Shown here piece by piece: positions 1,049-51,210 of a stretch of 64,000 bases of DNA. Source of the stretch: a virus. Taxonomy: Duplodnaviria > Heunggongvirae > Uroviricota > Caudoviricetes. Where the stretch lies: IMG/VR virus record IMGVR_UViG_3300025389_000018, one strand, 5' to 3'. Numbering within the stretch: the stretch's first letter is position 1; the number at the start of each line of letters is the position of its first letter. Position numbers and translations under genes: made by a program. The notes below the pieces were generated by a model. It saw only the letters and a list, made by a program, of their open reading frames with translations, was not told the DNA's origin and ran no database searches.

Positions 1049-1528
1049 TTGAATTTAGATGGAGTACTTAGTTCGGAACAAGGAGAACCAATCCGAGCAG
1101 GAGTGCAACTTTACTACGCCCTAAATAATGGTCATAGAGTCGCTCTTATGACTAGCCGTAATCAAGCGGATGCTGAGCATTGGTTAGCTTCTCATGGCAT
1201 TGTCGGTTATGACGACCTCATTGATTCTTCTTTTCATCTAGAGGGAGAAAACCTAAAGAAGCGTCAATTTACTCTCTCACGTTCACGGGCGCCAATCGAA
1301 CTCTATGTAGACTCCGACCCCCACATTTGTGCATGGGTATTTGAAGAACAACGAGTCCCAATTCTGATGTTTGGAAGTCCTGTTTACTCCAAAATTGAAA
1401 ATCGTCCTAGTGCACCTAGAAGTGTTCGTAAATGGAGCGAGATTGAAGAGTCTGTAACTAGAGTCAACCTAGCAAAGGTACGTGAGTACACCAAGACTGC
1501 CCCAGAATTGGGAGAGTGGAGTGACTAA
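1049..1528 (+). CDS. Hypothetical protein (TTG start; weak HAD-like N-terminal LDGVL with the nucleophile Asp missing)
   Basis: A 159-aa ORF with a non-ATG start. It is tightly packed between neighbouring genes. Confidence 0.35.
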   Translation: MNLDGVLSSEQGEPIRAGVQLYYALNNGHRVALMTSRNQADAEHWLASHGIVGYDDLIDSSFHLEGENLKKRQFTLSRSRAPIELYVDSDPHICAWVFEEQRVPILMFGSPVYSKIENRPSAPRSVRKWSEIEESVTRVNLAKVREYTKTAPELGEWSD

Positions 1529-1580
1529 ACTAATCTTCTCAGGGGCCGAGGTAGGCTCTAATCGCACTCTTTTAGAAGGA

Positions 1581-3026
1581 ATGAAAGTTGATACGATGGG
1601 ACTCAACTTTTATGCGTTGAAGAAGAGAGGTTTGCCTAAGACCAAAATCTGGCTTATCTCAGAGCATTTCACTGAGGACACTCAGGTAGTAATCGAGTCT
1701 GGAGTACAGCAGGCAGAACGAGATGGATTGTCTAAAGAAGAACTGATTTCTTTAGCAGCAGATTACCAAGAGTTTTTGGTCAATAATGCGGACAGAGCTG
1801 CAGCTTTTCTAGAGTTTGATTCCCAAGTATTAGGCTTAAAATGGGTGGAAGAACAACGCCCCTTTTTCAGTAACGACCCAAAATTATGGGTAGTGTGGCA
1901 TGAGGAATACGGCTTACCAGCCCTTAAAGCCCTCTCAGAAGCCTACGAGAACGTCGCCATACCCAACGATGAGATTGAGTCTGTAACAAGCCTCTCAGCC
2001 GTTACAAGGATACACCAGAGGACATACGGCACCCTTTTTCATGCACTTGGGTGTGCCAAGCCAGACAACCTCAGACAGATACCATTTGCAACAGCCAGCA
2101 CATTGTCATGGTTATCACCCATGCGTAGAGGTGAAACGATTGTGTGGGATGGGCAAAAGATAGTCCGTTACCCCAAGAAGATGAAAGACCAAGCCAGACC
2201 TCGGTACAAGGCAATTGTAGAGAAAGCTGGACTGGACTATTTGGCGTTTAAAGAAGATAGTACCCTCGAAGCGACTAGAGTAGCGGTCTGGTCATACAAG
2301 CAAATGGAGTCATCAATGGATAAAAAGAAGCCCGATTTACACCTCATTGAGGGTGGTAAAGACGACAAGTTATCTGATAACAGCACTGAATTGATGACAG
2401 GTTTAGGAGGATTTGACTTCCTCGATTCTGATAACAAGGGGGTAGAGACACGGAAAAAATCTGCACCTGAAGTGGTGCAAAGAGCCCCAGAAGATATCCA
2501 AAATCTCCCTGTTTTCGGGTTCAGGATGAAGACCATAGTTGACCAAGATGAGAATGGCAAGGATGTCCTGATGGATGTTCCAGTCGTTCACACTCAGCAA
2601 TCTTCTCTACGACAGTGCGATACATGCTTTGTTGCAGCAAACTGTCCTGCCTTCAAACCTCAAAATACCTGCGCCTTCAACCTTCCAATCGAAGTAAAAA
2701 CTAAAGACCAACTTAAGGCTTTGATGGTCTCGATGATTGAAATGCAGGGTCAAAGAGTCGCTTTTATGCGTTTTGCTGAAGAAATGAACGGTGGATACGC
2801 TGACCCAAATGTGTCTCAAGAAGTTGACCGCCTCATCAAAATGGTTAAAGAAGTTAACGACATGAACTCCGATAAAGAGTTCATTCAGATTACAGCTCAA
2901 CGTCAATCTGCTGGTGGAGTTCTGTCTGCCATCTTTGGGGACAAGGCTCAGGCTCTTCGTGAACTGCCAGATGCCCTGAAGGAAGATACAGTCACAAAAA
3001 TTATCCAAGATTCTATAGAAGAGTAG
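1581..3026 (+). CDS. Hypothetical protein with Cys cluster CDTCx5Cx8C (start ambiguous: 1482 or RBS-preceded ATG at 1581)
   Basis: Long ORF with aggaATG at 1581. The antisense ORFs inside it (2237-3008) are judged spurious. Confidence 0.6.
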   Translation: MKVDTMGLNFYALKKRGLPKTKIWLISEHFTEDTQVVIESGVQQAERDGLSKEELISLAADYQEFLVNNADRAAAFLEFDSQVLGLKWVEEQRPFFSNDPKLWVVWHEEYGLPALKALSEAYENVAIPNDEIESVTSLSAVTRIHQRTYGTLFHALGCAKPDNLRQIPFATASTLSWLSPMRRGETIVWDGQKIVRYPKKMKDQARPRYKAIVEKAGLDYLAFKEDSTLEATRVAVWSYKQMESSMDKKKPDLHLIEGGKDDKLSDNSTELMTGLGGFDFLDSDNKGVETRKKSAPEVVQRAPEDIQNLPVFGFRMKTIVDQDENGKDVLMDVPVVHTQQSSLRQCDTCFVAANCPAFKPQNTCAFNLPIEVKTKDQLKALMVSMIEMQGQRVAFMRFAEEMNGGYADPNVSQEVDRLIKMVKEVNDMNSDKEFIQITAQRQSAGGVLSAIFGDKAQALRELPDALKEDTVTKIIQDSIEE

Positions 3027-5867: not shown

Positions 5868-6503
5868 TTATTTACTTGTTGCTACCTTGTTATGAGTAGG
5901 CTTAGTTAGGTTCATAGAACGTGGCTTTGCATAGTCTGCGTTCATTGTTTCCCCCTTATGTGTGAGGCTTACCGAACTCTTTGCTGTAGTTTGGTAAGGA
6001 TATTTTGACATGTAGTACTGGACTATAGGTTGGTTTGTACCTTTCCAATCATCCCAATTCTTCCCGCCATCGCTCATCTTGTAAGCAACTGTGGCGTTAA
6101 CAATAGGGTCGAACAACTGGTTGTTAGACTTTAGCCCGTAATAGGCACGTCTAGCAGGACCGAGTTCTCCAATCATGTTGATTTGGAATAGTCCGTAGGA
6201 GTGGTCTCCTGTGTACACATTTCCGTTGTAGTCTAAAGGACGACCTTGAGACTCTTTCTTTGCTATTGCCCATGCTTCTTTTAGGTGCTTTCCCTTAAAC
6301 CCAACTACCTTTAGTAGTTGAACAAGGCGTGTGTCAGAGAGGTATTTAACTCCTGCAAATGACTTGACCATAAGTGCGTGGGCTGGTTCGGGGGCTATTG
6401 CTGGCGTTGCTATTCCAAGTCCGATTACAAAAGCGAAAATCGGGCTTGTGAACATTGACGCTAGAACAACCTTTCCTCTTGTTGTTAGTTTCATAGTTAT
6501 CAC
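5868..6503 (-). CDS. Lytic transglycosylase (SLT/lysozyme-like domain) with N-terminal TM/signal
   Basis: Carries the KKESQG catalytic-Glu motif and GLFQIN, with a hydrophobic N-terminus. Confidence 0.65.
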   Translation of the reverse strand: MITMKLTTRGKVVLASMFTSPIFAFVIGLGIATPAIAPEPAHALMVKSFAGVKYLSDTRLVQLLKVVGFKGKHLKEAWAIAKKESQGRPLDYNGNVYTGDHSYGLFQINMIGELGPARRAYYGLKSNNQLFDPIVNATVAYKMSDGGKNWDDWKGTNQPIVQYYMSKYPYQTTAKSSVSLTHKGETMNADYAKPRSMNLTKPTHNKVATSK

Positions 6504-7834
6504 TACTCCAAATAGTCATTGACAACCTCGGCTGCCTTTGACTGCTGGTGACGTACTCGGTGTAAGTACCTTTCTGTCGTTGTGATTGACTGATGACCTA
6601 AACGCTCTTTGACTTCATGCACATCTACGCCATTCTTTAGAAGAATAGTGGCGTTAGCGTGTCTTAGGTCGTGCGTTTTGGGATACCAGCCAATACCTGA
6701 CGTGGTTATGGCTCCATTCCAAGTGGCTCTCCACCTGTCACGGGGCAGATAGTCCTCGCTTTTGCTAAGGCTTTGGCTTTTGCTTTCGCTTTTGCTAAGG
6801 CTTTCTGCTTTGCCTTTGGCTTTGTCCTTTCTGTATTGGTGGCGGTATTCCTTAACCGCTAATTGGCAGTCTACACACCTGCAACCACCCACATTGTAGG
6901 CATAGGTAGTTCCATGCTGGAAGGTTCTGCTTCCAACTGTGTAAGACTTCTTTCTCCCTGTCCTTTTGGTAGGGCTTCCTAGTTTACCTGGTGTTAAGAC
7001 TGTGTTCTTTGAAAAGACTAGGTCGTCTTTTGCTAAGGCTTTTACTGAGACAAATTTTTTTACCTCGGCTATGAGGTTTTCGCTTAGGACTACGGTTCGT
7101 TTGTTGCCATTCTTGGTCGCTTCAACCACCGCAAATCTTTTACCTCGGTTGAGTTCTTTGCCTATATCAGCAACTGTTCTTCTGACATAGACTTCTTTAG
7201 CAGAGAAGTTAAAGTCTTTAACTCTTAGTTCTGTGGCTTCTCCAAATCGCAACCCAGAACCTATGAGAAATCTGGCAAATAACTGTGCGCCTTCTGTTGG
7301 TAAGTTCTTTAAGATGGCTTGAAAGTCTTTAGGTTCTAGCGTGTACGTTGGGTCGGGTCTTTGTACGGGTGTCTTTATTCGGTGTGTGGGATTGGTTGGT
7401 ATCAACTCATCCTCTACGGCTTGTCTGAATAAGTAACCTAGTGCCGTCTTGAGGTGGGATAAATTAGATGGGCTTACGCCTTCCTTCTTTAAGGATTCAA
7501 GTAATTGGCGGATGTCTTGTCTCTTGATTGCGGAGATGCGTGTATCACCAACTTTAGGTAGGGCATACTTCTTTAGCAGAATGAGATATGTCTTTTTTGT
7601 GCTTAGGCGAACATCTGTTCTAGTCAATAAGTCTTTAGCGTAACTGTTTAGTGTAGGTTGATTATCCGGCAGCAATACGCTCTTTTTTGGTAGTGGTATA
7701 TCTGCGCCTTCTTCGGCTAATAGACCAGCCTGTAACGCCTTCGCTTTAGAGTTGAAAGTACCAGCAGACTTAACCTTGCCGTCTGCTCTGTAATAGCCTG
7801 TGTAGCGTTTATTGCGCTCTATTACATAAGCCAT
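6503..7834 (-). CDS. int: Tyrosine integrase (arm-binding N-domain plus catalytic domain) with an internal Ser/Lys-rich repeat insert
   Basis: C-terminal HDLRHANAT...LGHQSITTTERYLH (the R..H-R-Y tetrad region), LRFGEATELR box I, and an N-terminal AP2/arm-DNA-binding-like MAYVIERNKRYTGYYRADGK. Confidence 0.85.
   Translation of the reverse strand: MAYVIERNKRYTGYYRADGKVKSAGTFNSKAKALQAGLLAEEGADIPLPKKSVLLPDNQPTLNSYAKDLLTRTDVRLSTKKTYLILLKKYALPKVGDTRISAIKRQDIRQLLESLKKEGVSPSNLSHLKTALGYLFRQAVEDELIPTNPTHRIKTPVQRPDPTYTLEPKDFQAILKNLPTEGAQLFARFLIGSGLRFGEATELRVKDFNFSAKEVYVRRTVADIGKELNRGKRFAVVEATKNGNKRTVVLSENLIAEVKKFVSVKALAKDDLVFSKNTVLTPGKLGSPTKRTGRKKSYTVGSRTFQHGTTYAYNVGGCRCVDCQLAVKEYRHQYRKDKAKGKAESLSKSESKSQSLSKSEDYLPRDRWRATWNGAITTSGIGWYPKTHDLRHANATILLKNGVDVHEVKERLGHQSITTTERYLHRVRHQQSKAAEVVNDYLE
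6765..6835 (-). repeat. Degenerate tandem DNA repeat inside int encoding KGKAESLSKSESKSQSLSKSE
   Basis: Repeated units ttgctaaggctttggcttttgctttcgcttttgctaaggctttctgctttgcctttggctttg. Confidence 0.6.
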
Positions 7835-7855
7835 TATGGGTAACCCCCGTTTCCT

Positions 7856-7950
7856 ACTGGCGAGTAACTTACTGGTGAGTAACTTACCGTACTGGTGAGT
7901 AACTTGCGAACCGACACGCTACTGGCGAGTAAGTTACTGGCGAGTAACTT
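7856..7950. promoter_or_regulatory. Five direct 15-bp repeats ACTGGYGAGTAASTT upstream of int: candidate integrase arm-type sites / attP arm
   Basis: Copies at 7856, 7871, 7891, 7921 and 7936, immediately 5' of the int start. They are followed by the inverted repeat AGGGGCAG-17nt-CTGCCCCT (7975-8008). Confidence 0.6.
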
Positions 7951-8020
7951 AATGGACAAAAAAATAGGGGCAGATAGTCGGATTGACTACCTGCCCCTTA
8001 AAGAAGTTTATCCTTCTTTT

Positions 8021-8300: not shown

Positions 8301-8578
8301 CTAAGCCACTTCCCTTTCTATAACTATTCCATTGGACACTACCGATATAGGGCTTTCATACCCTGTTCCATCGTACATCTTGCCACCCCATACCCCGTAT
8401 ATCCCTCTCTGAGTCTTGGCATAGTTGCTACACGCTTTTAGTAAGTGGCATTTCCTACATATACTTTTCGCTAATTTGATTTCTTCTTTACGCCTAAAGT
8501 TATTCTTTGGGAAGAATACTTCGGGGTCTGTCTGAGCGCATAGTTGAGTTCCGTCATACGGGCTGTCACCACTCATAG
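8301..8578 (-). CDS. whiB: WhiB-like Fe-S transcription factor
   Basis: Four Cys (C..CRKC..CHLLKAC) plus the signature GVWGG turn. The start is refined to an internal ATG with AAGGAGAG RBS (ORF-track start 8654). Confidence 0.7.
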
Positions 8579-8835
8579 TCTCTTGCCCTCTCCTTCCGTT
8601 CTTCTGACTTAGACTCCACTTCATCAAGTGAAACCACCTTAAAGATAAAGTCATAGTTCTCTTTGTTATTCATTTTTTCTAACTTTTTTGCTTCTGACTT
8701 TGCTTTCCTTTTAGTCTTAAATAGCCCATACCAGCAGAGACAATCGGGGTCTGAGAGAGCCGTTGTTATCTCTATACACCACTTGAATTTGCGCTTATAC
8801 ATTTGTATCCACCTCTTTGCTATTAGGTACTGCAT
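8566..8835 (-). CDS. Hypothetical basic protein
   Basis: Lies in the leftward operon with short overlaps to its neighbours. Confidence 0.45.
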   Translation of the reverse strand: MQYLIAKRWIQMYKRKFKWCIEITTALSDPDCLCWYGLFKTKRKAKSEAKKLEKMNNKENYDFIFKVVSLDEVESKSEERKERARDYEW

Positions 8836-10177: not shown

Positions 10178-10589
10178 CTCCTATAACTATTCCAGTTTTA
10201 AGAACCTCTTGAAGTCGTGGCGTTATTTCATTATCGAAATAGTCTCTGCCGTACTTCCATATACGGTCAGGAATTTGGTCTATAACTTCTTTAGTAATAA
10301 ATCCATTTACTAAAGAGGCTACTTTTGCACCTGCGTGTTTATCTCCTTTTAAGAAATAAACTCCACCAATTCTTGATAGACGTAATGCTTCTGTACTGCT
10401 ACCCCTCATGTCATAATCAAGTTCTTTAACTATGAATTTTCTAGTATCTAGTGGTGCGTGTTTCTGCCAATCCCATCCATGAGGGGCAGTGATAGTCACT
10501 TGTTCTAAATCAGGGATTGCTACACGAAAGAAGATAGTCTCCCACCCAGTTATTTCAACCTTTGTTTTTTCCAATAGATTACTGCTCAT
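10155..10589 (-). CDS. Hypothetical protein
   Basis: Operon context. Confidence 0.5.
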   Translation of the reverse strand: MSSNLLEKTKVEITGWETIFFRVAIPDLEQVTITAPHGWDWQKHAPLDTRKFIVKELDYDMRGSSTEALRLSRIGGVYFLKGDKHAGAKVASLVNGFITKEVIDQIPDRIWKYGRDYFDNEITPRLQEVLKTGIVIGDGNAKLV

Positions 10590-11169
10590 TTGTCTCTCTC
10601 TTTTCTAGGTAACTTATTTTCTTATAGACTTTTGATTTTCCTTCAGACGTTTTATAGCCGTACCGAACGAAACGTGACTCTAAGGCAGAAGTAGTTACTC
10701 CTAATGATTTTGCTAACGAATAGCAACTAACTCCTTTTTGCACCTGCTCCCACGCTAACTTAGTGAATAGTTCTGCTTCTTCTCGGTAATTGGTACTTGT
10801 GCTTCTTACTAACTGCGCTTTGTTACGAAGTTCTATTAGTTGTGCTAAAACTTCAGGTTCTACTTCTAACATCTTCCTGTCATAGATAGGAATAGAAGGC
10901 ACTTGCGGTACTCGGTACTTACCCAACACCTTCTCTCTAATTACAGGGTCATTAGCGATTGGCTCATTCACCAACTGTCGGATTCTTTCGCGTGTAACAC
11001 CTATCACATCAGCCATAGATTGAAGTGTCCAGCCTTCATCGCGTAGTGCCTTTAAGTAAGCCTTCTTCTCTTGTAAGTCTAGGTTCTGAATTACACCTAG
11101 TATTCCTTCAGGAAGTTTCATATCAGACTTCTTTTTCTTTGTTCCTACTTGCACTTTATGTATTGTCAT
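10579..11169 (-). CDS. DNA-binding protein with two HTH motifs (sigma-70 region-4-like)
   Basis: GWTLQSMADVIGVTRERIRQL resembles a region-4 HTH. A second HTH is YSLAKSLGVTTSALESRF. Confidence 0.5.
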   Translation of the reverse strand: MTIHKVQVGTKKKKSDMKLPEGILGVIQNLDLQEKKAYLKALRDEGWTLQSMADVIGVTRERIRQLVNEPIANDPVIREKVLGKYRVPQVPSIPIYDRKMLEVEPEVLAQLIELRNKAQLVRSTSTNYREEAELFTKLAWEQVQKGVSCYSLAKSLGVTTSALESRFVRYGYKTSEGKSKVYKKISYLEKRETNEQ

Positions 11170-13880: not shown

Positions 13881-15896
13881 TTATGAATTGGCTACTAGGT
13901 TTCGTGCGATTGCAATTCGTACAAGTTCCCGACCCAATATCGTGATGTCTTTTGCAGACTTGATTTGTGTCAGTAACTCAAACGAGTGGCGATAGTGTTC
14001 GAGATGTTGAGCAGAGATAGTTCCTTGCTCTAAGTAGGCTTGGCAAGTTAGAACGCCAGCATTACGCATTTCCGTAACTGCTTGCTCTCCTTCTTTTGAG
14101 TCCCACATTCCATCCGTAATCATAAATAGAATACGGATTGGCTTATCGGTTTCAGCGAGAACACGTTTCGCGTAGAGAATTGCTTCGTGAGGATTGGTTC
14201 CCCCGTCAGCACCAGCGTCACGAATTGAATTTCCAGCCTTATCCTCAGCACTGTAAAGAAGTGTCGTGTCATAATCGAATAAGCAGACAGTTGTTCGGGC
14301 TTCGACTTCTTCAAGTGCCTTCTTAATTGCCCACATACTTTGATATGCCATGTCTGCATTATTTCCTGCCATTGAACCCGACTTATCTAGCAAGATAACG
14401 GCTTCAATAGAAGTTACATCAGAACGACCTTCTTGCCATTCATCGAAACAAGTATCGAAATCCTCATTATTGAGATAACGATTGACATTCAAGCGACCTG
14501 TATCAACTTCTGACTCCCATGCAGGGTCAAACTTTGCGCGTAAGCGTTCGAGTTCACGACCAAACGCTTTAGAAGTTAGCACCAGTTCAGGATTAGCAGG
14601 TACTTCTCTGTGTCGGGCTTTAATTGGCGTAGTTACATTTCCGCCATTTAATCCAACATCAACACCCATCTGCTTTGCGATTTGATTTATCTCTTTAGAT
14701 AACTCGCGCAAGGCTTCATCCATAATGCCATCAAGTATTTGTGATACCTGTTGATTAGTGCCTGTTGTACCTTTATCTGTTCCTATTCCCTTTGCAGGAT
14801 TGGATGGAGAAGGTTCAAGGTCTAAGTCAATCTCTTCGTCATAGTCCCATTCCTCATCTTCCTCATCAAACGGCGATGGTGTAGTGCTGTCAGGATTTTT
14901 TACTGCGGATTTATCTTCTTTAGAAGTTTCCTCAGTTACATCTCCCTCAGTTACATCGCCATCAGTTGTATCAGTTGTATCTTCATCAGTTGCAGGAGAG
15001 AGTTCTATATCTACAACAAGAACGGGCTTTGGATTGTCCTTGCTCTTACTCCTTCCTAAGTCGCTCTCTTGCTGTGCGCGACTAACTGGTCGGACACTAC
15101 TGCTATCTACCCCTTGTGTTGGGCGAGTGCTATGACCCATAGGGTCACTAATGCGAACTATAACTGTCTGACCACCTTGACCATTACTACTGCTCTGTGT
15201 CGGTGCTAACTGCTTTATCAACTCGTCTAACTCTTTGATAAGTACCTTCGCTCTTTCCGTTGCTGTTCGTACTTCTTCAATAGAACCTACGAATATCAGT
15301 TGTCGGTATTCATCAACGATGTTATAGATTGCTTCTACATCTTGTGGTCGTTGGTAGTTATCAACTGCTAACTGTTGGATTTCAGTAGGCAGATACCTAC
15401 GACCAGTAATAAGAGGAAACGCTGTTGGTAGTGCTTCCTCGTTTTTAATGATGTAGTTAGTAACTACGGCTGTTAGCCACTTAGCAATACTTGGCAAGTA
15501 ACCGACTAACAAGGTTTCGATTCGGTTGTCCTCTAGCACGTTAAACGTATTCCATAGGTCATTCTGTTGTACCCATGCTATGAAAGGCGTACCAGTTCTA
15601 GGCGTATAGCGGAGATGTCCTAACTCATGGAAATCAAGTCCTTGCAGTTCCAAGATAGTTTCAGCAGTAATCTCGTCATGCAACTCAGCCAAGTTAAGCC
15701 ACATTTGCGTACTGCTTGACCATGCAGGAGATTCGATTAAAGGTTCATCTACTACACTTACCGAGATTTTTCGACCTGTCAAAACACTATTAGTGCGAGC
15801 GAATACACTCGCAAGTTTAGTGATGTGACTGCGCTTTAATTGCTGTAGTTCTTTTGCTTTGTCCTCTTGGCTTTGCTCTTTAATGAACGCTCTCAT
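13881..15896 (-). CDS. von Willebrand factor A domain protein (CobT-like partner of the MoxR ATPase)
   Basis: vWA MIDAS motif ILLDKSGSM near the C-terminus, with an acidic low-complexity linker (TDEDTTDTTDGDVTEGDVTEE). It sits adjacent to the AAA+ gene. Confidence 0.8.
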   Translation of the reverse strand: MRAFIKEQSQEDKAKELQQLKRSHITKLASVFARTNSVLTGRKISVSVVDEPLIESPAWSSSTQMWLNLAELHDEITAETILELQGLDFHELGHLRYTPRTGTPFIAWVQQNDLWNTFNVLEDNRIETLLVGYLPSIAKWLTAVVTNYIIKNEEALPTAFPLITGRRYLPTEIQQLAVDNYQRPQDVEAIYNIVDEYRQLIFVGSIEEVRTATERAKVLIKELDELIKQLAPTQSSSNGQGGQTVIVRISDPMGHSTRPTQGVDSSSVRPVSRAQQESDLGRSKSKDNPKPVLVVDIELSPATDEDTTDTTDGDVTEGDVTEETSKEDKSAVKNPDSTTPSPFDEEDEEWDYDEEIDLDLEPSPSNPAKGIGTDKGTTGTNQQVSQILDGIMDEALRELSKEINQIAKQMGVDVGLNGGNVTTPIKARHREVPANPELVLTSKAFGRELERLRAKFDPAWESEVDTGRLNVNRYLNNEDFDTCFDEWQEGRSDVTSIEAVILLDKSGSMAGNNADMAYQSMWAIKKALEEVEARTTVCLFDYDTTLLYSAEDKAGNSIRDAGADGGTNPHEAILYAKRVLAETDKPIRILFMITDGMWDSKEGEQAVTEMRNAGVLTCQAYLEQGTISAQHLEHYRHSFELLTQIKSAKDITILGRELVRIAIARNLVANS

Positions 15897-15909: not shown

Positions 15910-17250
15910 TTAGTTTATGTCAGAAGTAACTGGTGATTGAAACTCTTGCTCTAGTTGCAAACGGTGTGCCTCAAACAGCAGGCGAACACTTGCGCGTTCT
16001 TCATCGTTAAAGTTCATCAACGCATTTTCCAATGCAAACTCAAACCCAAGTTCGTGAGCGAGTTCTTGGAAGTTCTTTAGCCAGCGTAATGAGATAGGCG
16101 TTGTATAAGTTCCCTTGATACTGTCTGCTCTCATGTCGTTAGCAATTTTCAGAAGTGTTGGTGACTTAATGATTTTCTTTTCGATAGTTGGGTCGTACTC
16201 AAACTTCAATTTGATACCGAAACGGTCTAGGAAGGCTTCATTCAACTTATTGCTTCCTCGGTATCCGTTGTTATATGTAGCGACCACCATGAAGTCAGGA
16301 TGTGCAGGTACTACTTCGCCACCATTCTCAATGATTGAGAGAGTGCGGTTTTGTAGTAAATCTTGAAGTCGTTGCAGGATTTTGGTAGGAGCGAAATCAA
16401 CTTCATCTAGGATAACAATGTCTCCACGCTTTACTGCTTGCGTGAGAACGCCATCTATCCAAACTGGCTTGCCAGTTTCAGAGTCAATGATTGTTTTACC
16501 AATAAACTGCCCAACTTCAATTCCCATCGAACAGGAGAACACATAAACGCCTTGACCTTCTTTATGCCCGAAGTTAAGTGCGCTAGTTGTTTTTCCTGTA
16601 CCAGCATGACCTTCGATAAGTACGAATTTCTTTAGTCGCTTAGCAGTTGAGAACATCTTGTGTTCAGTAACACCGCCAGCGAAAGTACGCTCAATGTAAT
16701 CTCCTACAAGTTCTTTAGAAGGAATACGGATTACATAACGACCAATGACTTCATCATCTAATTCCTCATAGCGTGGGGCTTGCGAAACTTCGATAGTGTC
16801 GTTGATTACTAGCGGATTTTTTACTGCGGTGGCACTCTTGTCACTTCTGCCATCACTACGGTATTTCGCTAGGGATTGTGGGTCTTGCTCTATCATGTCG
16901 TGTACCTCTTTCAGTAGTTCGGTTAGTGTTCGGTTGCTTGCTTCTTTATGGCGTAAGCCGTACTGCTTTGTTAGTTTTTGGATTAAAACATTTGGGCGTT
17001 GATTCTTTTGTAAAGAATATATGTCGTTATCAGTAAGTGGTGTAGAGAGAACCTCACCGACAATAACGTGTTCATCATGGATGGCGATTACTTCATCATA
17101 ATCAGAGTCAGTCCATGCGTTAGTCTCCCCACGTCCCCCATTAGTAGTGCGAGTCCATGCGTAGTTCTTACCTTCGTGAGTTGCTAGTAGTACCTGTCGA
17201 ACGGTATCTACTGTGTCGGTCTGCGCTGTGATTAGGATTGCTTGTGACAT
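15910..17250 (-). CDS. AAA+ ATPase, MoxR/CobS-like, with ~190-aa N-terminal extension
   Basis: Walker A IEGHAGTGKTT and Walker B IVILDEVDFAP. It pairs with the vWA gene. Confidence 0.8.
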   Translation of the reverse strand: MSQAILITAQTDTVDTVRQVLLATHEGKNYAWTRTTNGGRGETNAWTDSDYDEVIAIHDEHVIVGEVLSTPLTDNDIYSLQKNQRPNVLIQKLTKQYGLRHKEASNRTLTELLKEVHDMIEQDPQSLAKYRSDGRSDKSATAVKNPLVINDTIEVSQAPRYEELDDEVIGRYVIRIPSKELVGDYIERTFAGGVTEHKMFSTAKRLKKFVLIEGHAGTGKTTSALNFGHKEGQGVYVFSCSMGIEVGQFIGKTIIDSETGKPVWIDGVLTQAVKRGDIVILDEVDFAPTKILQRLQDLLQNRTLSIIENGGEVVPAHPDFMVVATYNNGYRGSNKLNEAFLDRFGIKLKFEYDPTIEKKIIKSPTLLKIANDMRADSIKGTYTTPISLRWLKNFQELAHELGFEFALENALMNFNDEERASVRLLFEAHRLQLEQEFQSPVTSDIN

Positions 17251-17254
17251 TTAT

Positions 17255-17593
17255 TTATTCCCCTTTGTTTTCGTTGTTTTCGTTGTCATTTGGTATTGAG
17301 AAGGATTGCTCTAGGGTTGAAATTTCTTTCAACTTATTGGTTGCCGATTCGATTGCTTGCTGTGAGATTCGTGCCAGCACTTCGATTGGTATTTCCGCGA
17401 TTAGAATTGACAAGTAATAGAACACCACCTGTTCTCTACTATCGAAGTCAGGGCGTGTAAATTCCAATGCGTTCAATGTAGCGACAGATATGAGGTCACG
17501 AATTTTCTGTTCATGTTCGGGGTTACTGCTATCTAGGTCATATCCACCGCCTTGTAACTTAACGATGTGTTTTTTGCGCCATTTGATTCTCAT
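17255..17593 (-). CDS. Hypothetical protein
   Basis: First gene of the leftward operon. Confidence 0.5.
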   Translation of the reverse strand: MRIKWRKKHIVKLQGGGYDLDSSNPEHEQKIRDLISVATLNALEFTRPDFDSREQVVFYYLSILIAEIPIEVLARISQQAIESATNKLKEISTLEQSFSIPNDNENNENKGE

Positions 17594-17901
17594 TTATTTA
17601 TTTTCCTTTTTTTATTCAGTAATGATTGAAGTTGAAAGTAATAGAGAACATCATCATCCACTAGAAGGGTGACACCGTTCTCGTCAATAGTTGCAATAGG
17701 TACGATAGGCATTTGTCATTCTCCTTTAGTTGTAGTTGATTATCTAGGGAATAGTAAATCTTTACAAAATTGGTTCATGTGACTTACTGGCACGTTGCAG
17801 ATATGAGGCGTTGTGATTTTGTTTAGCCAATAAATCAACGTGATAACAAGGATTGTCACAAGTATTGCGCGAACACGCTTTCCTCTTTTAGTTAGTGTCA
17901 T

Positions 17902-18099
17902 TTATTTAGCCTCTCTCTTTTCATCTAGGTATTGTTGAAACGTGCTTACACTCGCTACTAACTCATTAGCGATTTGACCGATTTCACTTGATTCGGAGAA
18001 GTCGGTAATTGTTTTATCTTTCAGTAGTTCATTTGCTCGTTGCATTAACTTCCGCGCATAAGCGAAGTCACTTCTTACTTCAGATTTTGTAGTCACCAT
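17902..18099 (-). CDS. Hypothetical small protein
   Basis: Isolated small ORF. Confidence 0.35.
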   Translation of the reverse strand: MVTTKSEVRSDFAYARKLMQRANELLKDKTITDFSESSEIGQIANELVASVSTFQQYLDEKREAK

Positions 18100-18549
18100 T
18101 TGTCCTTCTCCATTCGTTGTTGTTGATTACTCCCACCAAGTAATCACCACCACTTACCTGCTATACCTGCTCATAACAAGATGGCAAGTAAGTGATAGAA
18201 ACTATTTGCTGTTATTGAAATTGGTGTCGAAGATGTTTATTGCACTAGGCATAGACACGCAACTAATTGTTAGTTGCCACCAGTATCGCGTGTGAGTAAC
18301 TCATAGCCGTAACTATGAGTGTCACCTAATCACTTCACATTGTTGTAGTCATTTATTTTGTGATGTTAGTAGAAGTTGTTAGCGATGAATACGCGCTACT
18401 AATTGCACGACAGTTGTTATCTTGTGAAAGTGATTTTGTCAGATTCCAAACCGAAGGTTTTTCTGACCACCTGTCCGTAGAGGGCGATACGTGAGAATTA
18501 TATGGTTAAAGAAGATTGAAACGCAAGTACCCCACAAGTACCAATTATC

Positions 18550-18775
18550 GGCGTGTTTTGAGCGTGATTTGAGCGTGATTTGGGGGATTGCGCCCATAAC
18601 GGGGGCAGGAATAGGGGTAGAGATTGCCCCACCTAACCCACCTAGCCCACCTACCGATGGCAGAAGTGATAAAGATTTATTTTTCTTTTATTCAGTAACG
18701 ATTAACAAGTTCTTAATAGATAGAGAGATAGATAGATATAAGAGATAGATAGATACATCGTGATACATCGTGATT
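18550..18775. repeat. Cluster of short tandem repeats: TGAGCGTGATT x2 (18559-18580), CCCACCTAN x3 (18628-18654), GATAGATA-type repeats and ATACATCGTG x2 (18753-18773)
   Basis: Read directly in the ORF-free 18100-19238 region. Confidence 0.7.
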
Positions 18776-18910
18776 GTTAGATAAGTTCTTTATCATCATT
18801 GAACAATACTATTGACACTACATTCACATTGTTATGTATTAGAGATTTATTTATGTTTATTCATGTGAATAATGCTTAACACATAATCCAAGTGATAAAG
18901 AAGATTGAAT

Positions 18911-18970
18911 AGTAAATAGTTGATAACATCTCAGAGAGATAGTAAATAGTTGATAACATCTCAGAGAGAT
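18911..18970. repeat. Perfect 30-bp tandem duplication AGTAAATAGTTGATAACATCTCAGAGAGAT x2
   Basis: Exact adjacent copies. They contain TTGATAAC (DnaA-box-like / iteron-like). Confidence 0.8.
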
Positions 18971-19238
18971 GGCTGTCAGTCTGGTCATGCAAACACACAA
19001 GACATCCGATTAAACGACAGTAGCCGAAGTAATCGCGTGGTCTGCTATCAAAACTGCTATCAAACTATTTAATATCGCGTGATTCACGCGGAGATAGAAC
19101 AATAAATACAAGTGATAGAAACTTGTTGCGAGTGTAATCGCGTGATAATTCAACAACATTGTTGCGTGATAGGGGCACAGTTAAGTCAAAATCGCCTATG
19201 GAAGGGCCAGGTTTCAGGCATGGTTGAGGGTATTGGGG

Positions 19239-19799
19239 CTAGGCAGTAGCCGAAATAGCGGTTCCTTTAGCGAGATTGCACTTTGCATGGGCTATTTTGA
19301 CGTTTTCTAAGGTGTCATCTCCGCCTAGAGAGAGGGGAATGACATGTTCTACGTGTGGGTAGGTCTCCCAGCCTGGGTCCTTCATGTTGTGAGGGGCAGT
19401 TAAGTCAACAGGAGTGCCACAGAGGTAGCAATCGTAGCCATCACGGTCAAATATCTGTTGTCTGGTGTAGTAAGAGCGCTTATTGCCCCTATTTCTAGCG
19501 CGGTCTCGGTTATTTGGAGGGCGTTTATGTGGGTTTTTCTTGTAATACTCGCGCTCTGTAGCCTTGTACTTAGGGTCTTTATTCTTTTCTCGCATATACG
19601 CGGCAGCGATTGCTCGGCATGGGGCACATGCCACACCGTTATTTCTACGGCAACGGTCATAGTCGCCCCTTGAAACGCCATGTTGATTACGAAGAAGTTC
19701 TTTTTTCTCAGTATTGACCTTTTTCTTCATAGCCCGTATGAGACGACGCGTGAGAATGCCTCGTTCTATAGTCTCAACTCTTTGAGAAACCTCATCCAC
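19239..19799 (-). CDS. HNH endonuclease
   Basis: YPHVEHVIPLSLGGDDTLENVKIAHAKCN HNH core, with upstream Cys pairs. Confidence 0.75.
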   Translation of the reverse strand: MDEVSQRVETIERGILTRRLIRAMKKKVNTEKKELLRNQHGVSRGDYDRCRRNNGVACAPCRAIAAAYMREKNKDPKYKATEREYYKKNPHKRPPNNRDRARNRGNKRSYYTRQQIFDRDGYDCYLCGTPVDLTAPHNMKDPGWETYPHVEHVIPLSLGGDDTLENVKIAHAKCNLAKGTAISATA

Positions 19800-19914
19800 A
19801 GCAGAAGCATACCTCCCCTATCAAATAAGAGTTCAAACCTCAGAGATAAGGCAGTAGCCATAGAATCACCCTGACAGATTCGCTACCTGTTCAGCAAAGC
19901 CTCTCAGCAATGGG

Positions 19915-19930
19915 GGGCTTTGTGCTATCC
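19915..19930 (+). promoter_or_regulatory. Repeated element GGGCTTTGTGCTATCC, copy 1 (3' half of a hairpin with CAAAGCC at 19895-19901)
   Basis: Four copies lie within the ORF-free GC-richer region 19875-20990. Confidence 0.5.
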
Positions 19931-20405
19931 TTTAATAGCATGAAACTGCTCAATCCTCCGTACTGTCCAGAAATGCACTAGTACGGCAGCTTTAGGCCCC
20001 AAAAGAGTTTTAACCGTTTTCGCTGGACGTGTTGACTCCTTTGGGGCCTTCTGTTATTCTCTTACTATTGCCGTGACTAGCAATCGCTACCCTGAGCGTG
20101 ATAATGGGTGTAGGCATAGCTCCCGAATGAGTGCCTGTACTAAACCTTACAGATGTGTCCAGATAGAGGCACGTGGTTGCTCCTACTCGGAGGATTTAGG
20201 GTATAGAGTCGGTAAAGGGCGGACTAGTCATCCGCTGCTTTGCACCAACTGACTAGGCCGAACCTAGCAGTAGAACTTCATATGTTGCACTCTCAGGTTT
20301 GAGAATGCTGCATACGTCTTTCGAGTACAGGTCCCACTGCAAGAACCACACGTAGGCGCCGTATGGTGCACAGCGACGAAAGTTGCCAACAATACGTGCT
20401 TGAGT

Positions 20406-20422
20406 GGGACTTTGTGCTATCC
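20406..20422 (+). promoter_or_regulatory. Repeated element GGGACTTTGTGCTATCC(TGACAC), copy 2
   Basis: Same motif. The TGACAC extension is shared with copy 4. Confidence 0.5.
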
Positions 20423-20620
20423 TGACACCAAGGCCTGTTTTCTAGAGTGCGCGGGTCTTACCCATCCTATAAGGAGAAGAAAGAAATTTCTGAACCGTAT
20501 AGTGGTACCCTTGGGGTATCGTCTGAATGACAACGAATCTGACTGGCAAACGGTTAAGGTCGCTCCTGAGACACCAGTTAGCTGCCAAAGCCCTCGTAGG
20601 TACACTTGACCAATCTACGG

Positions 20621-20637
20621 GGGCTTTGTGCTAATAT
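20621..20637 (+). promoter_or_regulatory. Repeated element GGGCTTTGTGCTAATAT, copy 3 (hairpin partner CCAAAGCCC at 20586-20594)
   Basis: Variant tail. Confidence 0.45.
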
Positions 20638-20819
20638 AGAGCGATTCGGCACCGTATCGTAGATTGCATGGAAACATGCAGGTACTAACGCGGTATGCAG
20701 CATAGTCGACAATGACTGCACGGTTCCCAGAGAAATCAGGTCATAAATCTCTGAGCTACATTGCCCTCAATGTCTGCGTATGGAAACTTACGCACCCGCT
20801 CCGCGGCTTAAGCCATTGA

Positions 20820-20836
20820 GGGCTTTGTGCTATCCT
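20820..20836 (+). promoter_or_regulatory. Repeated element GGGCTTTGTGCTATCC(TGACAC), copy 4 (hairpin partner AAGCC at 20810-20814)
   Basis: Same motif. Confidence 0.5.
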
Positions 20837-20992
20837 GACACTGGTGGCAACAGGTACTACCTGGGCTCTCTCCGCAAGGACACGCCCTCACCCCACCGTT
20901 GGAGAGCGATTCTAGTTGCCAGATGCAAATAAGGCCTCCCGTCCTGGGCTCGACGTTAAAGGCGCCCATAACTTTTGTGATAACGTCTTCCT

Positions 20993-21298
20993 ATGAGCTT
21001 ACTTCCACCTGTAGTGGCTGTACTAGATGAGAAATTTAATCTTGGAATACCTGGCTCTTATGACGAGTGGTACAAGATAACTACGGATGTACTTAATGAG
21101 CCAAACGGGTACGTAGTGTGGCACTACCCGCCAGAAGATAAAGGCATGGGGAAGCCGTACAACACCTTCACTCTCTTACCAGGAATGGTAATGAGACTTG
21201 GAATGGGGACACTCCATCGGGAGGTAGTCTTCCGCCGTGGGTTTCCACTGGGGAAAGTGGTAACTTTAGAAGAAGAAGAAACTCTTTGGAACTCATAG
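20993..21298 (+). CDS. Small hypothetical protein ending ...EEEETLWNS (LW-tail family)
   Basis: First gene of the rightward early array. Confidence 0.5.
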   Translation: MSLLPPVVAVLDEKFNLGIPGSYDEWYKITTDVLNEPNGYVVWHYPPEDKGMGKPYNTFTLLPGMVMRLGMGTLHREVVFRRGFPLGKVVTLEEEETLWNS

Positions 21299-21310
21299 AA
21301 GGGGGAATAT

Positions 21311-21697
21311 ATGAACTCAAATTACAACGCACTACAGGGGTATAACGTAGTCACCTCTAATTCTTACATTAACTCTCCGCGCACTAGAAGAGTTATAGAA
21401 GTTACGTTAGATGAAGAGTTTGAAATACCGCAATACGGATTCTTTGTCCTTCAACTTTTGGTGGAGGAAGATGCGCACTACACACTCTCGCTTGTACAAC
21501 TCGCCGTCAATGTGCCTGCAGCAACACAAAAAGGCTCTTTTAATCTTGGTGTGTTTCCTGATGCCAAAGTTCTCTCTTGCTCAAGAATTCCAAAAGGGGT
21601 AGATAAGTACACCTTTTACATATGGGAGAACGCGATTGTATGTGACGTAAGTAGGTCGTCCTATGACACCTACGAAGGGATGTTGTGGCAGCAATGA
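21311..21697 (+). CDS. Small hypothetical protein ending CDVSRSSYDTYEGMLWQQ (LW-tail family, CD[LV][TS]xS subfamily)
   Basis: RBS GAAGGGGG. Confidence 0.5.
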   Translation: MNSNYNALQGYNVVTSNSYINSPRTRRVIEVTLDEEFEIPQYGFFVLQLLVEEDAHYTLSLVQLAVNVPAATQKGSFNLGVFPDAKVLSCSRIPKGVDKYTFYIWENAIVCDVSRSSYDTYEGMLWQQ

Positions 21698-41176: not shown

Positions 41177-43513
41177 ATGGAAAACTACGACGAAGAAAAA
41201 TTTGAAGAGATAAATCCTGACTTTTATCTCCAGGATGAAGAACCTGTTGTAGAAGAGCAGGAAGAAGAGTTAGATGAGCTTTCTCAACAATTTGTAAATA
41301 AACTCATCGAAAAAATTATGGACTTTTTAGTAGTCCTTGTTGGGCACGATTTACACCCTTACCAAAAACCTTTAGCTAGACGGATAATTGAGTCCGTAAT
41401 CATCAATGATGGTGAAGAAATAACTGCTCTTGCATCTCGTCAGTCAGGTAAATCTGAAACAGTAGCTGATGTCGTAGCAACATTGATGGTTCTTTTACCT
41501 CGGCTTGCAAAGCTGTATCCAGACCTTCTTGGAAAATTTAAAGATGGGTTATGGGTAGGACTCTTTGCTCCTACAGAATCACAGGCCGAAACTCTGTTCG
41601 GGAGAGCAGTGACTCGTCTTACGTCTGAGCGTGCTATTGAAATCATGGATGACCCAGAGATTGACGATAGCACAGCTCGTGTGGGTGGAGTTACTCGGCA
41701 GATTAAGCTTAAAAAATCAGGCTCTACTATCACTATGATGACTGCTAACCCTCGTGCAAAGATTGAATCTAAGTCGTTCCACTTGGTAGTTATTGATGAG
41801 TGCCAAGAAGCGGATGACTTCGTAGTATCCAAATCAATCTCTCCTATGTTGGCTTACTACGCAGGAACGATGGTAAAAACAGGTACACCAACAACAAGCA
41901 AAAACAACTTTTACAGAAGTATTCAACTCAACCGTCGTCGTCAAACTGGGCGTAATTCACGGCAAAATCATTTCCAATGGGACTGGAAAGAAGTCGCGAA
42001 AGTCCAACCTAATTACGAAAAATTTATTCGAAAAGAGATGCTTCGTATCGGTGAAGATTCCGATGAATTTCAGATGTCGTACAACTGCCTTGTTCCAACT
42101 ACTAAAGTCCTTACTTCAGACCTTCAGTATGTGGAGATTGGGTCTGTAAAAGTTGGAGATACTCTCGTAGGATTCGACGAAGAACCAACTACTAAAGGTG
42201 CTCATAGAAAAATACGGAAAACAACTGTAACTAAAGCGGAGCGCATACTTCGTCCTACTTACAATATAGCCCTGTCAGACGGCACAGTTGTGGGCTCATC
42301 AGATGGACATTTATGGCTAGTATCAACAGCTGGTCGTAGAACAGTGTGGAAACGCACAGACGAGCTACTTACTACAGACCGTATTTTTAAAATATTAGAT
42401 ACTTGGGAGAGTGCAGAAGATTATAGAACAGGGTATCTAGCGGCTGCATTTGATGGGGAGGGGCACTTCTCTCGTCAAGCAATGCTCGGATTCTCTCAGA
42501 GAGATAATGTCATGCTTTCAAAGGTAAGGAAGTATCTGACTGAGTTGGGATTTAAGTATTGGGAACGGCATGACACAGGTACTAATGGCGATGTAACTGT
42601 TCTCCATATAGCAGGCGGACGTGCGAGCATGTCTAGATTCTTGGGACAAATACGTCCAGAACGATTACTTAAGAAAGTGAACTTGGATGAGTTCGGGTCT
42701 ATAGGCCGTCATGATTTCGTCGGACAAGACTTTGAACACCCTCTAGTTGTTTCAGTGGAGTATGTTGGTGAGCAAGAGGTTGTAGCTCTTGAAACAACGA
42801 CGAAAACCTTTATCGCAGAAGGATTAGCTTCTCATAACTGCAAATGGTTGTTAGAAAGAGGTATGTTCGTCACTTCTACAGTCATGGATGAGTTAGGAGA
42901 CACTTCGCAAGAGGTCGTAAGAGCATGGCATAAAACTCCCGTAGTAGTGGGAATTGACCCAGCTCGTAAGACTGACTCAACAGTAGTCACTGTTGTTTGG
43001 GTTGACTGGGATAGGCCAGACGAGTTCGGCTACTTCGACCATCGAGTGTTGAACTGGTTGGAACTTCAAGGAGAAGATTGGGAAGAACAATACTTTCAGA
43101 TTGTAAACTTCTTAGAGAATTATGACGTGCTTGCTATAGGGGTAGATGCTAACGGTGTAGGAGACGCAGTAGCCCAACGTCTAAAGCTTCTAATGCCTCG
43201 CGCTGAAGTAACTGCTCTTACCTCCAGTCCATCAGAACAATCGAAGAGGTGGAAACACTTACAGGCATTGATTCAGAGAAAAATGATTAGTTGGCCTGCA
43301 CATGCAAAGGTTCGCAGAGGAAGAACTTTTAGGCGTTTTTATCAGCAGATGACGGATGCCGAAGTTACGTTTAAAGGCCCTAACTACATGGTTGCAGCCC
43401 CCGATGAAGCCCATGCCCACGATGACTTTGTGGATTCACTCTCTATTGCTTGCAGCCTTACCCAGAACCTTGTTATGCCGGAAGTAGTTGCTTCTAGTAA
43501 TCCCTTCTTTTAA
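41177..43513 (+). CDS. Terminase large subunit (ATPase + nuclease) interrupted by an intein
   Basis: Walker A ASRQSGKSE and Walker B HLVVIDECQEADD. The host protein remains in frame around the intein. Confidence 0.8.
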   Translation: MENYDEEKFEEINPDFYLQDEEPVVEEQEEELDELSQQFVNKLIEKIMDFLVVLVGHDLHPYQKPLARRIIESVIINDGEEITALASRQSGKSETVADVVATLMVLLPRLAKLYPDLLGKFKDGLWVGLFAPTESQAETLFGRAVTRLTSERAIEIMDDPEIDDSTARVGGVTRQIKLKKSGSTITMMTANPRAKIESKSFHLVVIDECQEADDFVVSKSISPMLAYYAGTMVKTGTPTTSKNNFYRSIQLNRRRQTGRNSRQNHFQWDWKEVAKVQPNYEKFIRKEMLRIGEDSDEFQMSYNCLVPTTKVLTSDLQYVEIGSVKVGDTLVGFDEEPTTKGAHRKIRKTTVTKAERILRPTYNIALSDGTVVGSSDGHLWLVSTAGRRTVWKRTDELLTTDRIFKILDTWESAEDYRTGYLAAAFDGEGHFSRQAMLGFSQRDNVMLSKVRKYLTELGFKYWERHDTGTNGDVTVLHIAGGRASMSRFLGQIRPERLLKKVNLDEFGSIGRHDFVGQDFEHPLVVSVEYVGEQEVVALETTTKTFIAEGLASHNCKWLLERGMFVTSTVMDELGDTSQEVVRAWHKTPVVVGIDPARKTDSTVVTVVWVDWDRPDEFGYFDHRVLNWLELQGEDWEEQYFQIVNFLENYDVLAIGVDANGVGDAVAQRLKLLMPRAEVTALTSSPSEQSKRWKHLQALIQRKMISWPAHAKVRRGRTFRRFYQQMTDAEVTFKGPNYMVAAPDEAHAHDDFVDSLSIACSLTQNLVMPEVVASSNPFF
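42086..42838 (+). mobile_element. Intein (Hint domain with LAGLIDADG homing-endonuclease motif) within the terminase large subunit
   Basis: N-terminal splice junction YN|CLVPTT, LAGLIDADG-like GYLAAAFDGEGHF, and C-terminal ...LASHN|C (His-Asn plus +1 Cys). Confidence 0.7.
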
Positions 43514-48818: not shown

Positions 48819-49868
48819 GTGGCTACAGTAAGTTCGTTAGCAGCCCGTTTAAGAACTGAATTAGGCGATATGGGCAAGTCTTTCGTCTATTCATTCATGG
48901 CAGACGGAACCACTAATAGATTTTTAATCCCTTATTCACCTCTTCAGGGGACTACCCTAGCTATTCATCAGAACTCTACTGATGTTTCCAGTTCAGTCGA
49001 AGTAGAGGAAGAGACTGGTTACATCACTTTTGACACTACCCCAACTGCAGGGGACAGCATTGTTGTAGCTGGGTTTTACTTTAGGTATTTTACGGATACT
49101 GAAATAAACACTTTTGTTTGCGATGCTTTTGCTCAACATACTCTGAATCACACTGACCCTTATGGTCGTACAGTTACCATAGAGAATTTACCACAGGTAG
49201 AAGAGTATCCAGTAGCAGTATACGCAGCTACTTTAGCGCTTTACACTCTCGCTACCGATTCTTCTTTTGATATTGATATCACAGCTCCAGACGGAGTAAT
49301 GATTCCTCGTTCTGAGCGGTATCGCCAACTAATGCTCATGGTTGATGCTAGAAAAGAACAATACCGTGAACTATGCTCACAGCTTGGTATTGGCCTTTAC
49401 AAGATTGACGTATTTTCTTTGCGCCGTATCTCAAAGACAACCAACCAATACGTGCCTATCTTTGTACCACAAGAAGTGGATGACATTTCCGCACCTCAAC
49501 GTGTTTTGTTGCCTATTCCAACCTATGGTGCTTCTCCTACTCCGTCTACAGTGCCAAACTACGACATAAGCATGTACCAAGGAGACTCGTTCTACATTGA
49601 GCTTGATTTTACATTTGATGTTACACAGTATGAATGGCGTTCAGACATCGTCGTACTACCTGGTTATGCAACTCCTCTTACTTCGTTCACCATTGCAACC
49701 GTATCAGGGTCAACTACAAAACTTGGTCTTTCTTTGACCAGTGACCAAACATCACTTCTGCCACAACGTTGTTACTGGGATATCCAAGCAAAGTCGGTGA
49801 CTGACTCAAGTTACGAGCAAACCTACATGAAGGGTATGGTCTTCGTAACAACACAGGTGACTGAATGA
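48819..49868 (+). CDS. Structural protein (tail/fibre-associated)
   Basis: Lies upstream of the fibre genes. Confidence 0.5.
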
Positions 49869-51109: not shown

Positions 51110-51210
51110 TGATTACATACACACGCTACGGTATAGGAGGCTATGACCCCTCTAAGCCAAATAACAACATAGTTGAAGAGTACGAGATTCCAGATGAGGT
51201 GAGTGAGTAA
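51109..51210 (+). CDS. Tiny [33 protein letters not shown] (33 aa), paralog of 54413-54517
   Basis: TAATG overlaps both flanking fibre genes. Confidence 0.35.

Follow-up and report, generated by a model that had tools for sequence, protein, structure and literature searches.

A probable divergent early control region, with conserved promoter-like sites, a structured leader and a hypervariable spacer, in uncultured freshwater phages

Between the leftward early operon and an HNH endonuclease gene of an uncultured tailed phage (IMG/VR record IMGVR_UViG_3300025389_000018) lies a repeat-rich, non-coding stretch of 1.1 kb, at positions 18100-19238 of the 64,000 nucleotides analysed here, which we refer to as the window. 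From comparative sequence analysis we consider it probable that this region is the divergent early control region of the phage, with a possible additional function in replication. The carrier would be a phage of freshwater Actinobacteria with a genome of roughly 96-100 kb and a tail-sheath gene. In the proposed arrangement, the right third (18940-19252) would hold protein-binding sites that act at the DNA level and end in a rightward promoter for near-leaderless early genes, and recombination at repeats of the promoter core GGCAGTAGCC would exchange gene cassettes, the HNH gene included. The middle (18650-18940) would lie upstream of both predicted promoters, probably untranscribed and loosely constrained, and would gather tandem duplications. 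The left third would carry the leftward promoter P_L with the motif CACGCTCA just upstream, followed by a structured leader RNA of ~390 nt with two hairpins before the first gene.

The evidence comes from relatives in viral and freshwater metagenome collections, retrieved in two ways, via the neighbouring AAA protein and via DNA patterns. The comparison set comprises about 35 related phage sequences, several of whose contigs are 96-100 kb long, and the most conserved part was analysed in 35 distinct versions; 44 extra loci were retrieved with a pattern that includes the hexamers of the predicted rightward promoter, P_R. The element is present on 44 viral contigs and on 18 contigs from metagenomes, drawn from many samples. 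The comparison divides the region into four parts: a leader (18100-18490), P_L (18497-18526), a spacer (18650-18940) and a conserved block (18940-19252). Only the right-hand ~310 nt (18940-19252) can be aligned across lineages, the remainder being reduced to short islands, and a global alignment of the spacer from 28 lineages was not obtained as the sequences are too divergent. In all lineages examined, the leftward operon and the rightward genes are set apart by an ORF-poor gap of 1.07-1.57 kb, which has a similar GC profile in the seven examined in detail. CACGC shows a strong orientation bias in every lineage (8 forward and 2 reverse copies in the window, 2-5 forward and 0-2 reverse in relatives), and orientation-biased CACGC, TCTATC and the CTATCAAA pair stand at conserved places around both promoter-like sites. 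An earlier reading of the window's DNA alone, hereafter the original prediction, had proposed an operator hub next to a divergent early region; the comparison agrees, with a single leftward promoter-like site and one or more rightward ones, all at positions conserved across lineages.

The conserved block reaches 66-83% nucleotide identity across lineages, compared to 58-71% for the neighbouring AAA protein and 41% for the HNH protein in the same phages. A consensus over 35 distinct sequences gave no conserved RNA fold in it, with energies of only -6.6 and -2.8 kcal/mol on the two strands; such near-zero values rule out a structured RNA and mark the block as a DNA-level element. It contains the segment ATAGAACAATAAATACAAGTGATAGAAACTTGTTGCGAGTGTAAT at 19094-19138 on the plus strand, which includes the dyad ACAAGT-N7-ACTTGT and is nearly invariant in 8 lineages. 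Slightly upstream, at 19042-19064, lies the plus-strand pair CTGCTATCAAAA (1.9 copies), a candidate tandem protein-binding site in 12-bp phase. Its 12-bp-phased unit, CTATCAAA, is present in two copies in all lineages examined first and in 21 of the 35 distinct sequences; the paired site occurs nowhere else in the window, and shuffles give an expectation of 0. CACGC sites likewise occupy conserved positions within the block. These short motifs may bind regulators, for which the WhiB-like protein (8301-8654) and a helix-turn-helix protein (10579-11169) of the phage are candidates.

At its right-hand end the block runs into P_R, predicted on the plus strand with a -35 hexamer TTGAGG at 19224-19229, a 17-nt spacer and a -10 hexamer TAGCCG at 19247-19252. 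In 8 lineages whose selection did not depend on these hexamers, both are invariant. Among relatives without the HNH gene, 22 of 39 distinct contexts have a rightward ORF of at least 40 aa that starts no more than 30 nt from the -10-like hexamer, and in 17 contexts its start is exactly 12 nt from the hexamer, the encoded proteins being mutually unrelated. Near-leaderless mRNAs are common in Actinobacteria, and the geometry of P_R fits a promoter for mRNAs of this kind. The hexamers here and at P_L would be used as promoters.

The core of P_R, GGCAGTAGCC, is found again about 210 nt upstream and once more beyond the HNH gene. Every relative has 2-3 copies of it in constant orientation with gene starts following, and it is also found in front of the one or two rightward cassettes that come next. 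The upstream copy in the window, GACAGTAGCCG, is located at 19016-19026 (plus strand), and a second GGCTACTG copy, which was outside the search pattern, occurs 194-228 nt from the first in 34 of the 35 distinct sequences. The HNH cassette itself (19239-19859, minus strand) contains a gene at 19239-19799 with a Pfam HNH match and is bordered by direct copies of GGCTACTGCC at 19242-19251 and 19850-19859, and the last HNH codons fall inside the promoter-core motif. In a close pair of relatives, L003 and L021, both flanks are 99-100% identical, and what distinguishes the two is a 557-bp HNH insertion, placed at a 17-nt repeat, CGGCTACTGCCTAACCT. Judging from these sequence comparisons, HNH is a mobile cassette, and its insertion point coincides precisely with the promoter-core repeat. 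With the gene in place, P_R points antisense into HNH, and the second copy of the motif stands past the gene.

This organisation resembles the PeSL cassettes of T4-type phages, promoter/terminator units that mediate gene shuffling (PMC2839356, PMC4122927). As in those, small variable early genes are interspersed with copies of a short conserved motif that holds an early promoter and keeps one orientation, and the motif marks exact indel junctions between close relatives, here the 557-bp HNH insertion. In the phages studied here, unrelated genes start at a fixed 12 nt from the motif. Composite units of a hairpin plus CTTTGTGCTATCCT occur in the window at 19894-20836, within the stretch 19860-20992, whereas GGCAGTAGCC itself lacks a stem-loop. 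The two systems also differ in phage group, host phylum and motif sequence, the genes here are near-leaderless, and recombination at the motif is deduced from comparisons. The window does not belong to a T4-type phage, given the relation of its capsid protein to the BRock group, and the likeness is therefore one of analogy and not of membership.

On the left side, P_L is predicted on the minus strand with a -35 hexamer TTGCGT at 18526-18521, an 18-nt spacer and a -10 hexamer TATAAT at 18502-18497. The arrangement TTGCnn-N16-18-TAnnnT, or with AATAAT, is found at the same relative place in all seven lineages examined first, at a distance of 427-497 nt from the first gene. A strict pattern matches in 13 of 21 further distinct contexts, and several others have near-canonical -10 variants. 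TTGATA repeats were also considered as leftward -35 elements and were ruled out, as the aligned sequences have no conserved -10 at the right distance. Just upstream of P_L sits the repeated motif TGAGCGTG, already listed in the original prediction, which reads CACGCTCA on the minus strand. It was found in 14 of 24 lineages, where its median distance to the start of the block is 743 nt, usually as a single copy 9-21 nt before the P_L -35; only the window has it multiplied in tandem. The tandem repeat, TGAGCGTGATT, spans 18551-18582 (plus strand, 2.9 copies) and is a candidate regulator site upstream of P_L.

Transcription from P_L would start near 18490 and produce an untranslated leader of about 390 nt (18100-18490, minus strand) ahead of the first leftward gene (17902-18099), which has its start codon at 18099 and a Shine-Dalgarno sequence, GGAGAAGG, at 18104-18111. 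The leader is significantly structured. Its minus strand folds with z = -4.49 relative to shuffles, and sliding windows give z-scores of -3.5 to -2.3 on the minus strand compared to -1.6 to -1.9 on the plus strand. A consensus fold over five relatives reaches -73.2 kcal/mol when read leftward, compared to -57.6 for the opposite strand, with compensatory changes in 26 of 114 pairs. Two hairpins stand out. Hairpin 1 (18147-18201, minus strand) has a stem of 20-25 bp and the conserved tip TTGTTATGAGC (TTATGAG at 18170-18176); at least 12 lineages share the tip on stems that differ and are nevertheless complementary, and a 12-sequence alignment contains a compensatory change in 9 of 16 pairs. Hairpin 2 (18124-18146, minus strand), formed by TGATTACT and AGTAATCA just upstream of the Shine-Dalgarno sequence, has compensatory changes at two stem positions in six lineages and was also picked up by the repeat finder as inverted repeat I8. 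Direct reading of the hairpin 1 stems further reveals several U-G pairs that are possible only on the leftward strand. Taken at face value, these features suggest that the hairpins act at the RNA level, possibly in processing, stability or antitermination.

Conserved hairpins in untranslated early leaders are familiar from lambdoid and T7-type phages, which have nut/boxB hairpins and RNase III sites. The leader described here is similar in kind, with a conserved tip on a variable, covarying stem. It differs in that it has no sequence or Rfam relation to those systems, a stem far longer than boxB, and no N-like protein identified alongside it. One might instead take the whole region for a gene for one or more long non-coding RNAs and not a control region, and the significant structure and covariation in the left 400 nt as well as the conserved gap length would agree with that. 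Structure is, however, limited to the part downstream of P_L and runs into the Shine-Dalgarno sequence of the first gene, as expected of a leader, and the right-hand block has no conserved fold. Rfam gave nothing at gathering score in the window, and at E <= 1 a search of 17000-21500 returned one chance snoRNA match only. We regard a long non-coding RNA gene as improbable and prefer a leader that belongs to a control region.

The region as a whole is rich in repeats. Direct reading, a repeat finder and Tandem Repeats Finder recovered every repeat element that the original prediction had listed, with some of the positions shifted by 2-17 nt. Within about 520 nt, Tandem Repeats Finder reports eight rows, which correspond to seven arrays. 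On the plus strand, a perfect 30-bp tandem duplication occupies 18909-18970 (2.1 copies, 100%); further arrays are formed by GCGTGATTTGA at 18551-18582 (2.9 copies), CCCACCTAA at 18628-18653 (2.9 copies) and GATACATCGT at 18752-18774 (2.3 copies), together with an (ATAG)n or 17-mer tract at 18716-18755. The palindrome CGCGTGATTCACGCG exists, at 19076-19090 and not at 19066. Two copies of AAGTGATAGAAAC are present at 18190 and 19110 (given before as 18183 and 19103), the left one forming the base of hairpin 1, and two of AAGAAGATTGAA at 18510 and 18899 (given as 18493 and 18893). CGTGAT, which had been proposed to recur at least seven times, does so exactly 7 times, always on the plus strand; the other 63 kb contain 13 copies on both strands, from which 0.24 would be expected in the region. 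GATAGA has 8 copies compared to 0.36 expected, and four 8-mers are present in 4 copies each within the region and in none in the rest of the 64 kb. The repeats are far above chance.

The AT-rich hypervariable spacer (18654-18939) combines (GATA)n tracts with tandem duplications specific to the window. It has a GC content of 25-28%, measured over 18700-18899, compared to about 44% for the window as a whole, and the relatives are likewise AT-rich at this place. No alignable similarity extends across lineages; TATC-rich direct repeats with a period of 13-17 do occur at the same relative place in the relatives' spacers. At the left margin of the spacer, at 18602-18653 on the plus strand, a GC-rich hairpin (GGGGCA...TGCCCC) is followed by three copies of CCCACCTAN. 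Relatives have GGGGGC-TTCG-GCCCCC followed by CCCCCACC at a similar place and in opposite orientation; the hairpin and C-rich tract are reversed in the window relative to L001 and L015-L025. As a guess, this hairpin might be a bidirectional insulator or terminator.

How much of this repetition is functional is a separate question. The window-specific tandem repeats could be neutral by-products of slippage or recombination in a loose spacer, in which only the conserved single-copy cores matter, an explanation that we find quite possible, if slightly on the doubtful side. The 30-, 11-, 10- and 9-mer arrays are lineage-specific, and relatives have single cores at these places or other tandem repeats of their own. 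Absence of the repeats from relatives had been named as evidence against a functional array, and it was found for most of them, the 12-bp CTATCAAA pair and the TATC tract being shared as repeats. Assemblies also tend to break here: 14 of 27 complete contigs with the motif terminate within 1300 nt on the spacer side, compared to 1 at the opposite side, and their end points are scattered; two independent contigs that match the window at 100% identity start at the 30-bp repeat (18994 and 18970). As the ends are spread over about 1.2 kb, they point to population heterogeneity, and a fixed physical genome end was ruled out. On the other hand, the overall length of the spacer is conserved and three of the duplicated units hold motifs shared across lineages (TGAGCGTG, TGATAACATC and TATC); each 30-bp copy, for instance, includes the conserved core TGATAACATC, which in relatives corresponds to one GATGTWATCA copy. 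Likely binding sites are therefore multiplied along with these units, and the duplications could be under selection.

The non-coding character of the region, claimed in the original prediction, is upheld by the comparison, with no translated similarity between lineages outside the DNA-conserved block. Within the block, translated similarity spans several frames on both strands. On these two grounds hidden small protein genes were ruled out. A GTG-start ORF of 85 aa (18491-18748, plus strand), which spans repeats and was called as a gene in a public assembly, encodes a low-complexity product without conservation in relatives; the gene call is probably false. The location at a strand switch, in turn, had to be revised. 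The HNH gene is on the minus strand, as is the leftward operon, so the region is flanked by two leftward genes and is not itself the coding-strand switch; protein-coding genes on the plus strand start only at 20993.

Apart from transcriptional control, replication has to be considered, and the original prediction had put forward an iteron-rich origin or a partition site. Iteron origins are known from plasmids and phage lambda, where identical direct repeats would bind an initiator, as they would a ParB-like protein at a centromere. The many short direct repeats, the seven CGTGAT copies on one strand and the phased 12-bp pair lend themselves to such a view, and direct repeats adjoin an AT-rich stretch (18700-18899) that could serve for unwinding. 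An array of at least three near-identical direct repeats of ~17-22 bp in helical phase is nevertheless absent. Instead, there are six or more unrelated families with units of 9-30 bp (periods 9, 10, 11, 12, 17 and 30 bp) in 2-3 copies each, most of them single-copy in relatives. The neighbouring AAA_5 ATPase (15910-17250) and its VWA partner (13881-15896) are CobS/CobT-like and give no match to replication proteins; no replication initiator was detected among the neighbouring and larger ORFs scanned, a set outside which most small ORFs at 21-41 kb fall. DnaA boxes (TTWTNCACA) form no cluster, with one in the region and 5 in the window where 6.7 are expected. A partition site is unsupported, since the ORFs scanned include no ParA- or ParB-like gene, and the integrase speaks for integration rather than plasmid-like maintenance. 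Overall, a classical iteron origin or centromere appears very improbable.

An origin of a different kind fits the layout better. In lactococcal phage c2, the origin is a non-coding segment between divergent gene modules, with the first two early promoters, which share one direction, at its borders; the first of them gives rise to a non-coding transcript that helps to start replication beside an AT-rich stretch (PMC7150918). That our region is, or includes, a transcription-primed origin of this type is compatible with its role in early control, and the layout it shares with the proven origins of the c2 group (Ceduovirus) keeps this as a live rival, which we nonetheless rate as rather unlikely. 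Once the mobile HNH gene is discounted, the region is non-coding between divergent modules; like the c2-group origins (PMC7150918), it has neither ORFs nor ribosome-binding sites and varies strongly in sequence between types with the layout kept. Its two same-direction core copies enclose only non-coding DNA and the stretch of 25-28% GC follows; the short motifs are orientation-biased. A GC-skew shift had been suggested as a check, and the minima of GC skew (16767) and AT skew (20321) in the window do bracket the region, but these turning points coincide with the change in gene orientation. Further points speak against a c2-type origin: the upstream core copy has no -35, there is neither a conserved fold between the core copies nor an adjacent replication gene, and DnaA boxes do not cluster. 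The segment between the copies is also the best conserved part here and the most variable part in c2 phages (PMC7150918). Finally, neither megablast nor blastn, run with the region and with its flanks, yielded a nucleotide match in a reference phage collection, and no blastn relation to the c2, bIL67 or 923 origin types was obtained.

A divergent early control region remains our preferred reading, and several points weigh against it. P_L and P_R were both recognised by resemblance to consensus, with only 3 of 6 matches in the P_L -35, and a generic promoter scan flagged neither of them. The conservation of the P_R hexamers in the 44 extra loci is by construction, as the retrieval pattern held those hexamers. 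Local inverted repeats give covariation on both strands, so the RNA interpretation of the leader rests on the energy asymmetry and the U-G pairs. The upstream promoter-core copy has no -35-like hexamer, and the ~300 bp of conserved motifs before a promoter exceed the needs of a simple promoter, an excess for which this reading does not account. A more far-reaching combination, in which the block and AT-rich spacer form a transcription-primed origin and the long hairpin 1 of the leader is a new cis-acting RNA element for processing or antitermination that controls the CobS/CobT-like operon, seems to us rather unlikely; if true, neither the origin nor the RNA element would have a defined precedent in this phage group.

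With respect to its carrier, the window looks like part of an uncultured actinobacterial phage with a contractile tail. Protein scans identified a tyrosine integrase (6503-7834) and a class II ribonucleotide reductase besides the WhiB-like protein, and among the structural genes are those for a tail sheath, a capsid protein, an SPP1-type portal and a large terminase with a LAGLIDADG insert. In its capsid protein the phage shares 63% identity with the Streptomyces phage BRock group, and it is the WhiB-like protein and the capsid relatives that underlie the assignment to an actinobacterial host. For whiB-encoding phages, RNA data from Rotsee Lake are available (PMC10914622). The hosts are probably abundant, hard-to-culture freshwater Actinobacteria; a scan of bacterial and archaeal genomes with the neighbouring AAA protein recovered distant CobS-like genes only and identified no prophage or host. 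A 99,260-bp lake metagenome contig, L034 (ENA ERZ27271999 k141_141704), has a segment identical to the window. Its reported coordinates cannot fit the whole 64-kb window in either orientation, hence the window probably stems from a differently permuted or a separate assembly of the same phage.

Other parts of the window also deserve mention. The ORF at 1482-3026 adjoins the ribonucleotide reductase and matches a phage family annotated as queuine tRNA-ribosyltransferase (E = 8e-58), which makes it a DpdA-like protein and suggests 7-deazaguanine modification of the phage DNA. In the large terminase (41177-43513), the LAGLIDADG domain lies between the N-terminal and C-terminal halves, a position that suggests an intein. 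Long collagen-like (Gly-X-Y) repeat arrays in two large ORFs at 49865-54413 are the source of most tandem-repeat calls in the window, and these ORFs probably encode tail fibres. Adjoining the integrase gene are two arrays of the 15-mer TACTGGCGAGTAACT, at 7855-7887 (2.2 copies) and 7920-7955 (2.4 copies), which are candidate arm-type sites of the integrase, i.e. attP. An attP within the control region itself is unlikely, the integrase being 11 kb away with its own adjoining repeats.

Beyond the HNH cassette follows a second non-coding stretch (19860-20992) with about 50% GC. In it, hairpins are directly followed by CTTTGTGCTATCCT, present in three exact copies plus CTTTGTGCTAATAT, or by TGTTATTCT; CTTTGTGCTATCCT and TGTTATTCT can be read as extended -10 promoters (TGnTAnnnT), and a degenerate copy, TGATAACGT, is placed 6 nt ahead of the ATG at 20993. 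Local fold z-scores go down to -4.6. The stretch has no Rfam or tRNA match and no homologue in the relatives or the phage collection, and the exact 19-mer of its GC-rich promoter motif has no match in viral contigs. It looks like a tandem series of small units of promoter, structured RNA and hairpin. In the rightward early region of relatives, tRNA-Gln and tRNA-Gly genes were found (L020 1011-1082; L025 1498-1647), 0.5-1.8 kb past the last promoter-core motif; a tRNA scan of the whole window detected none.

These phages are common in lakes, and the region maps where their early transcription would start. It appears to be a known kind of phage control region in a new form, distributed widely among uncultured phages of freshwater Actinobacteria. 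The comparison brings out a short motif that appears to serve as the exchange point for early genes, a homing endonuclease among them, and a conserved RNA hairpin that is a candidate regulatory element. The variability of the spacer accounts for the tendency of assemblies of these phages to break at this place, and for the question of origin activity a defined fragment is now available.

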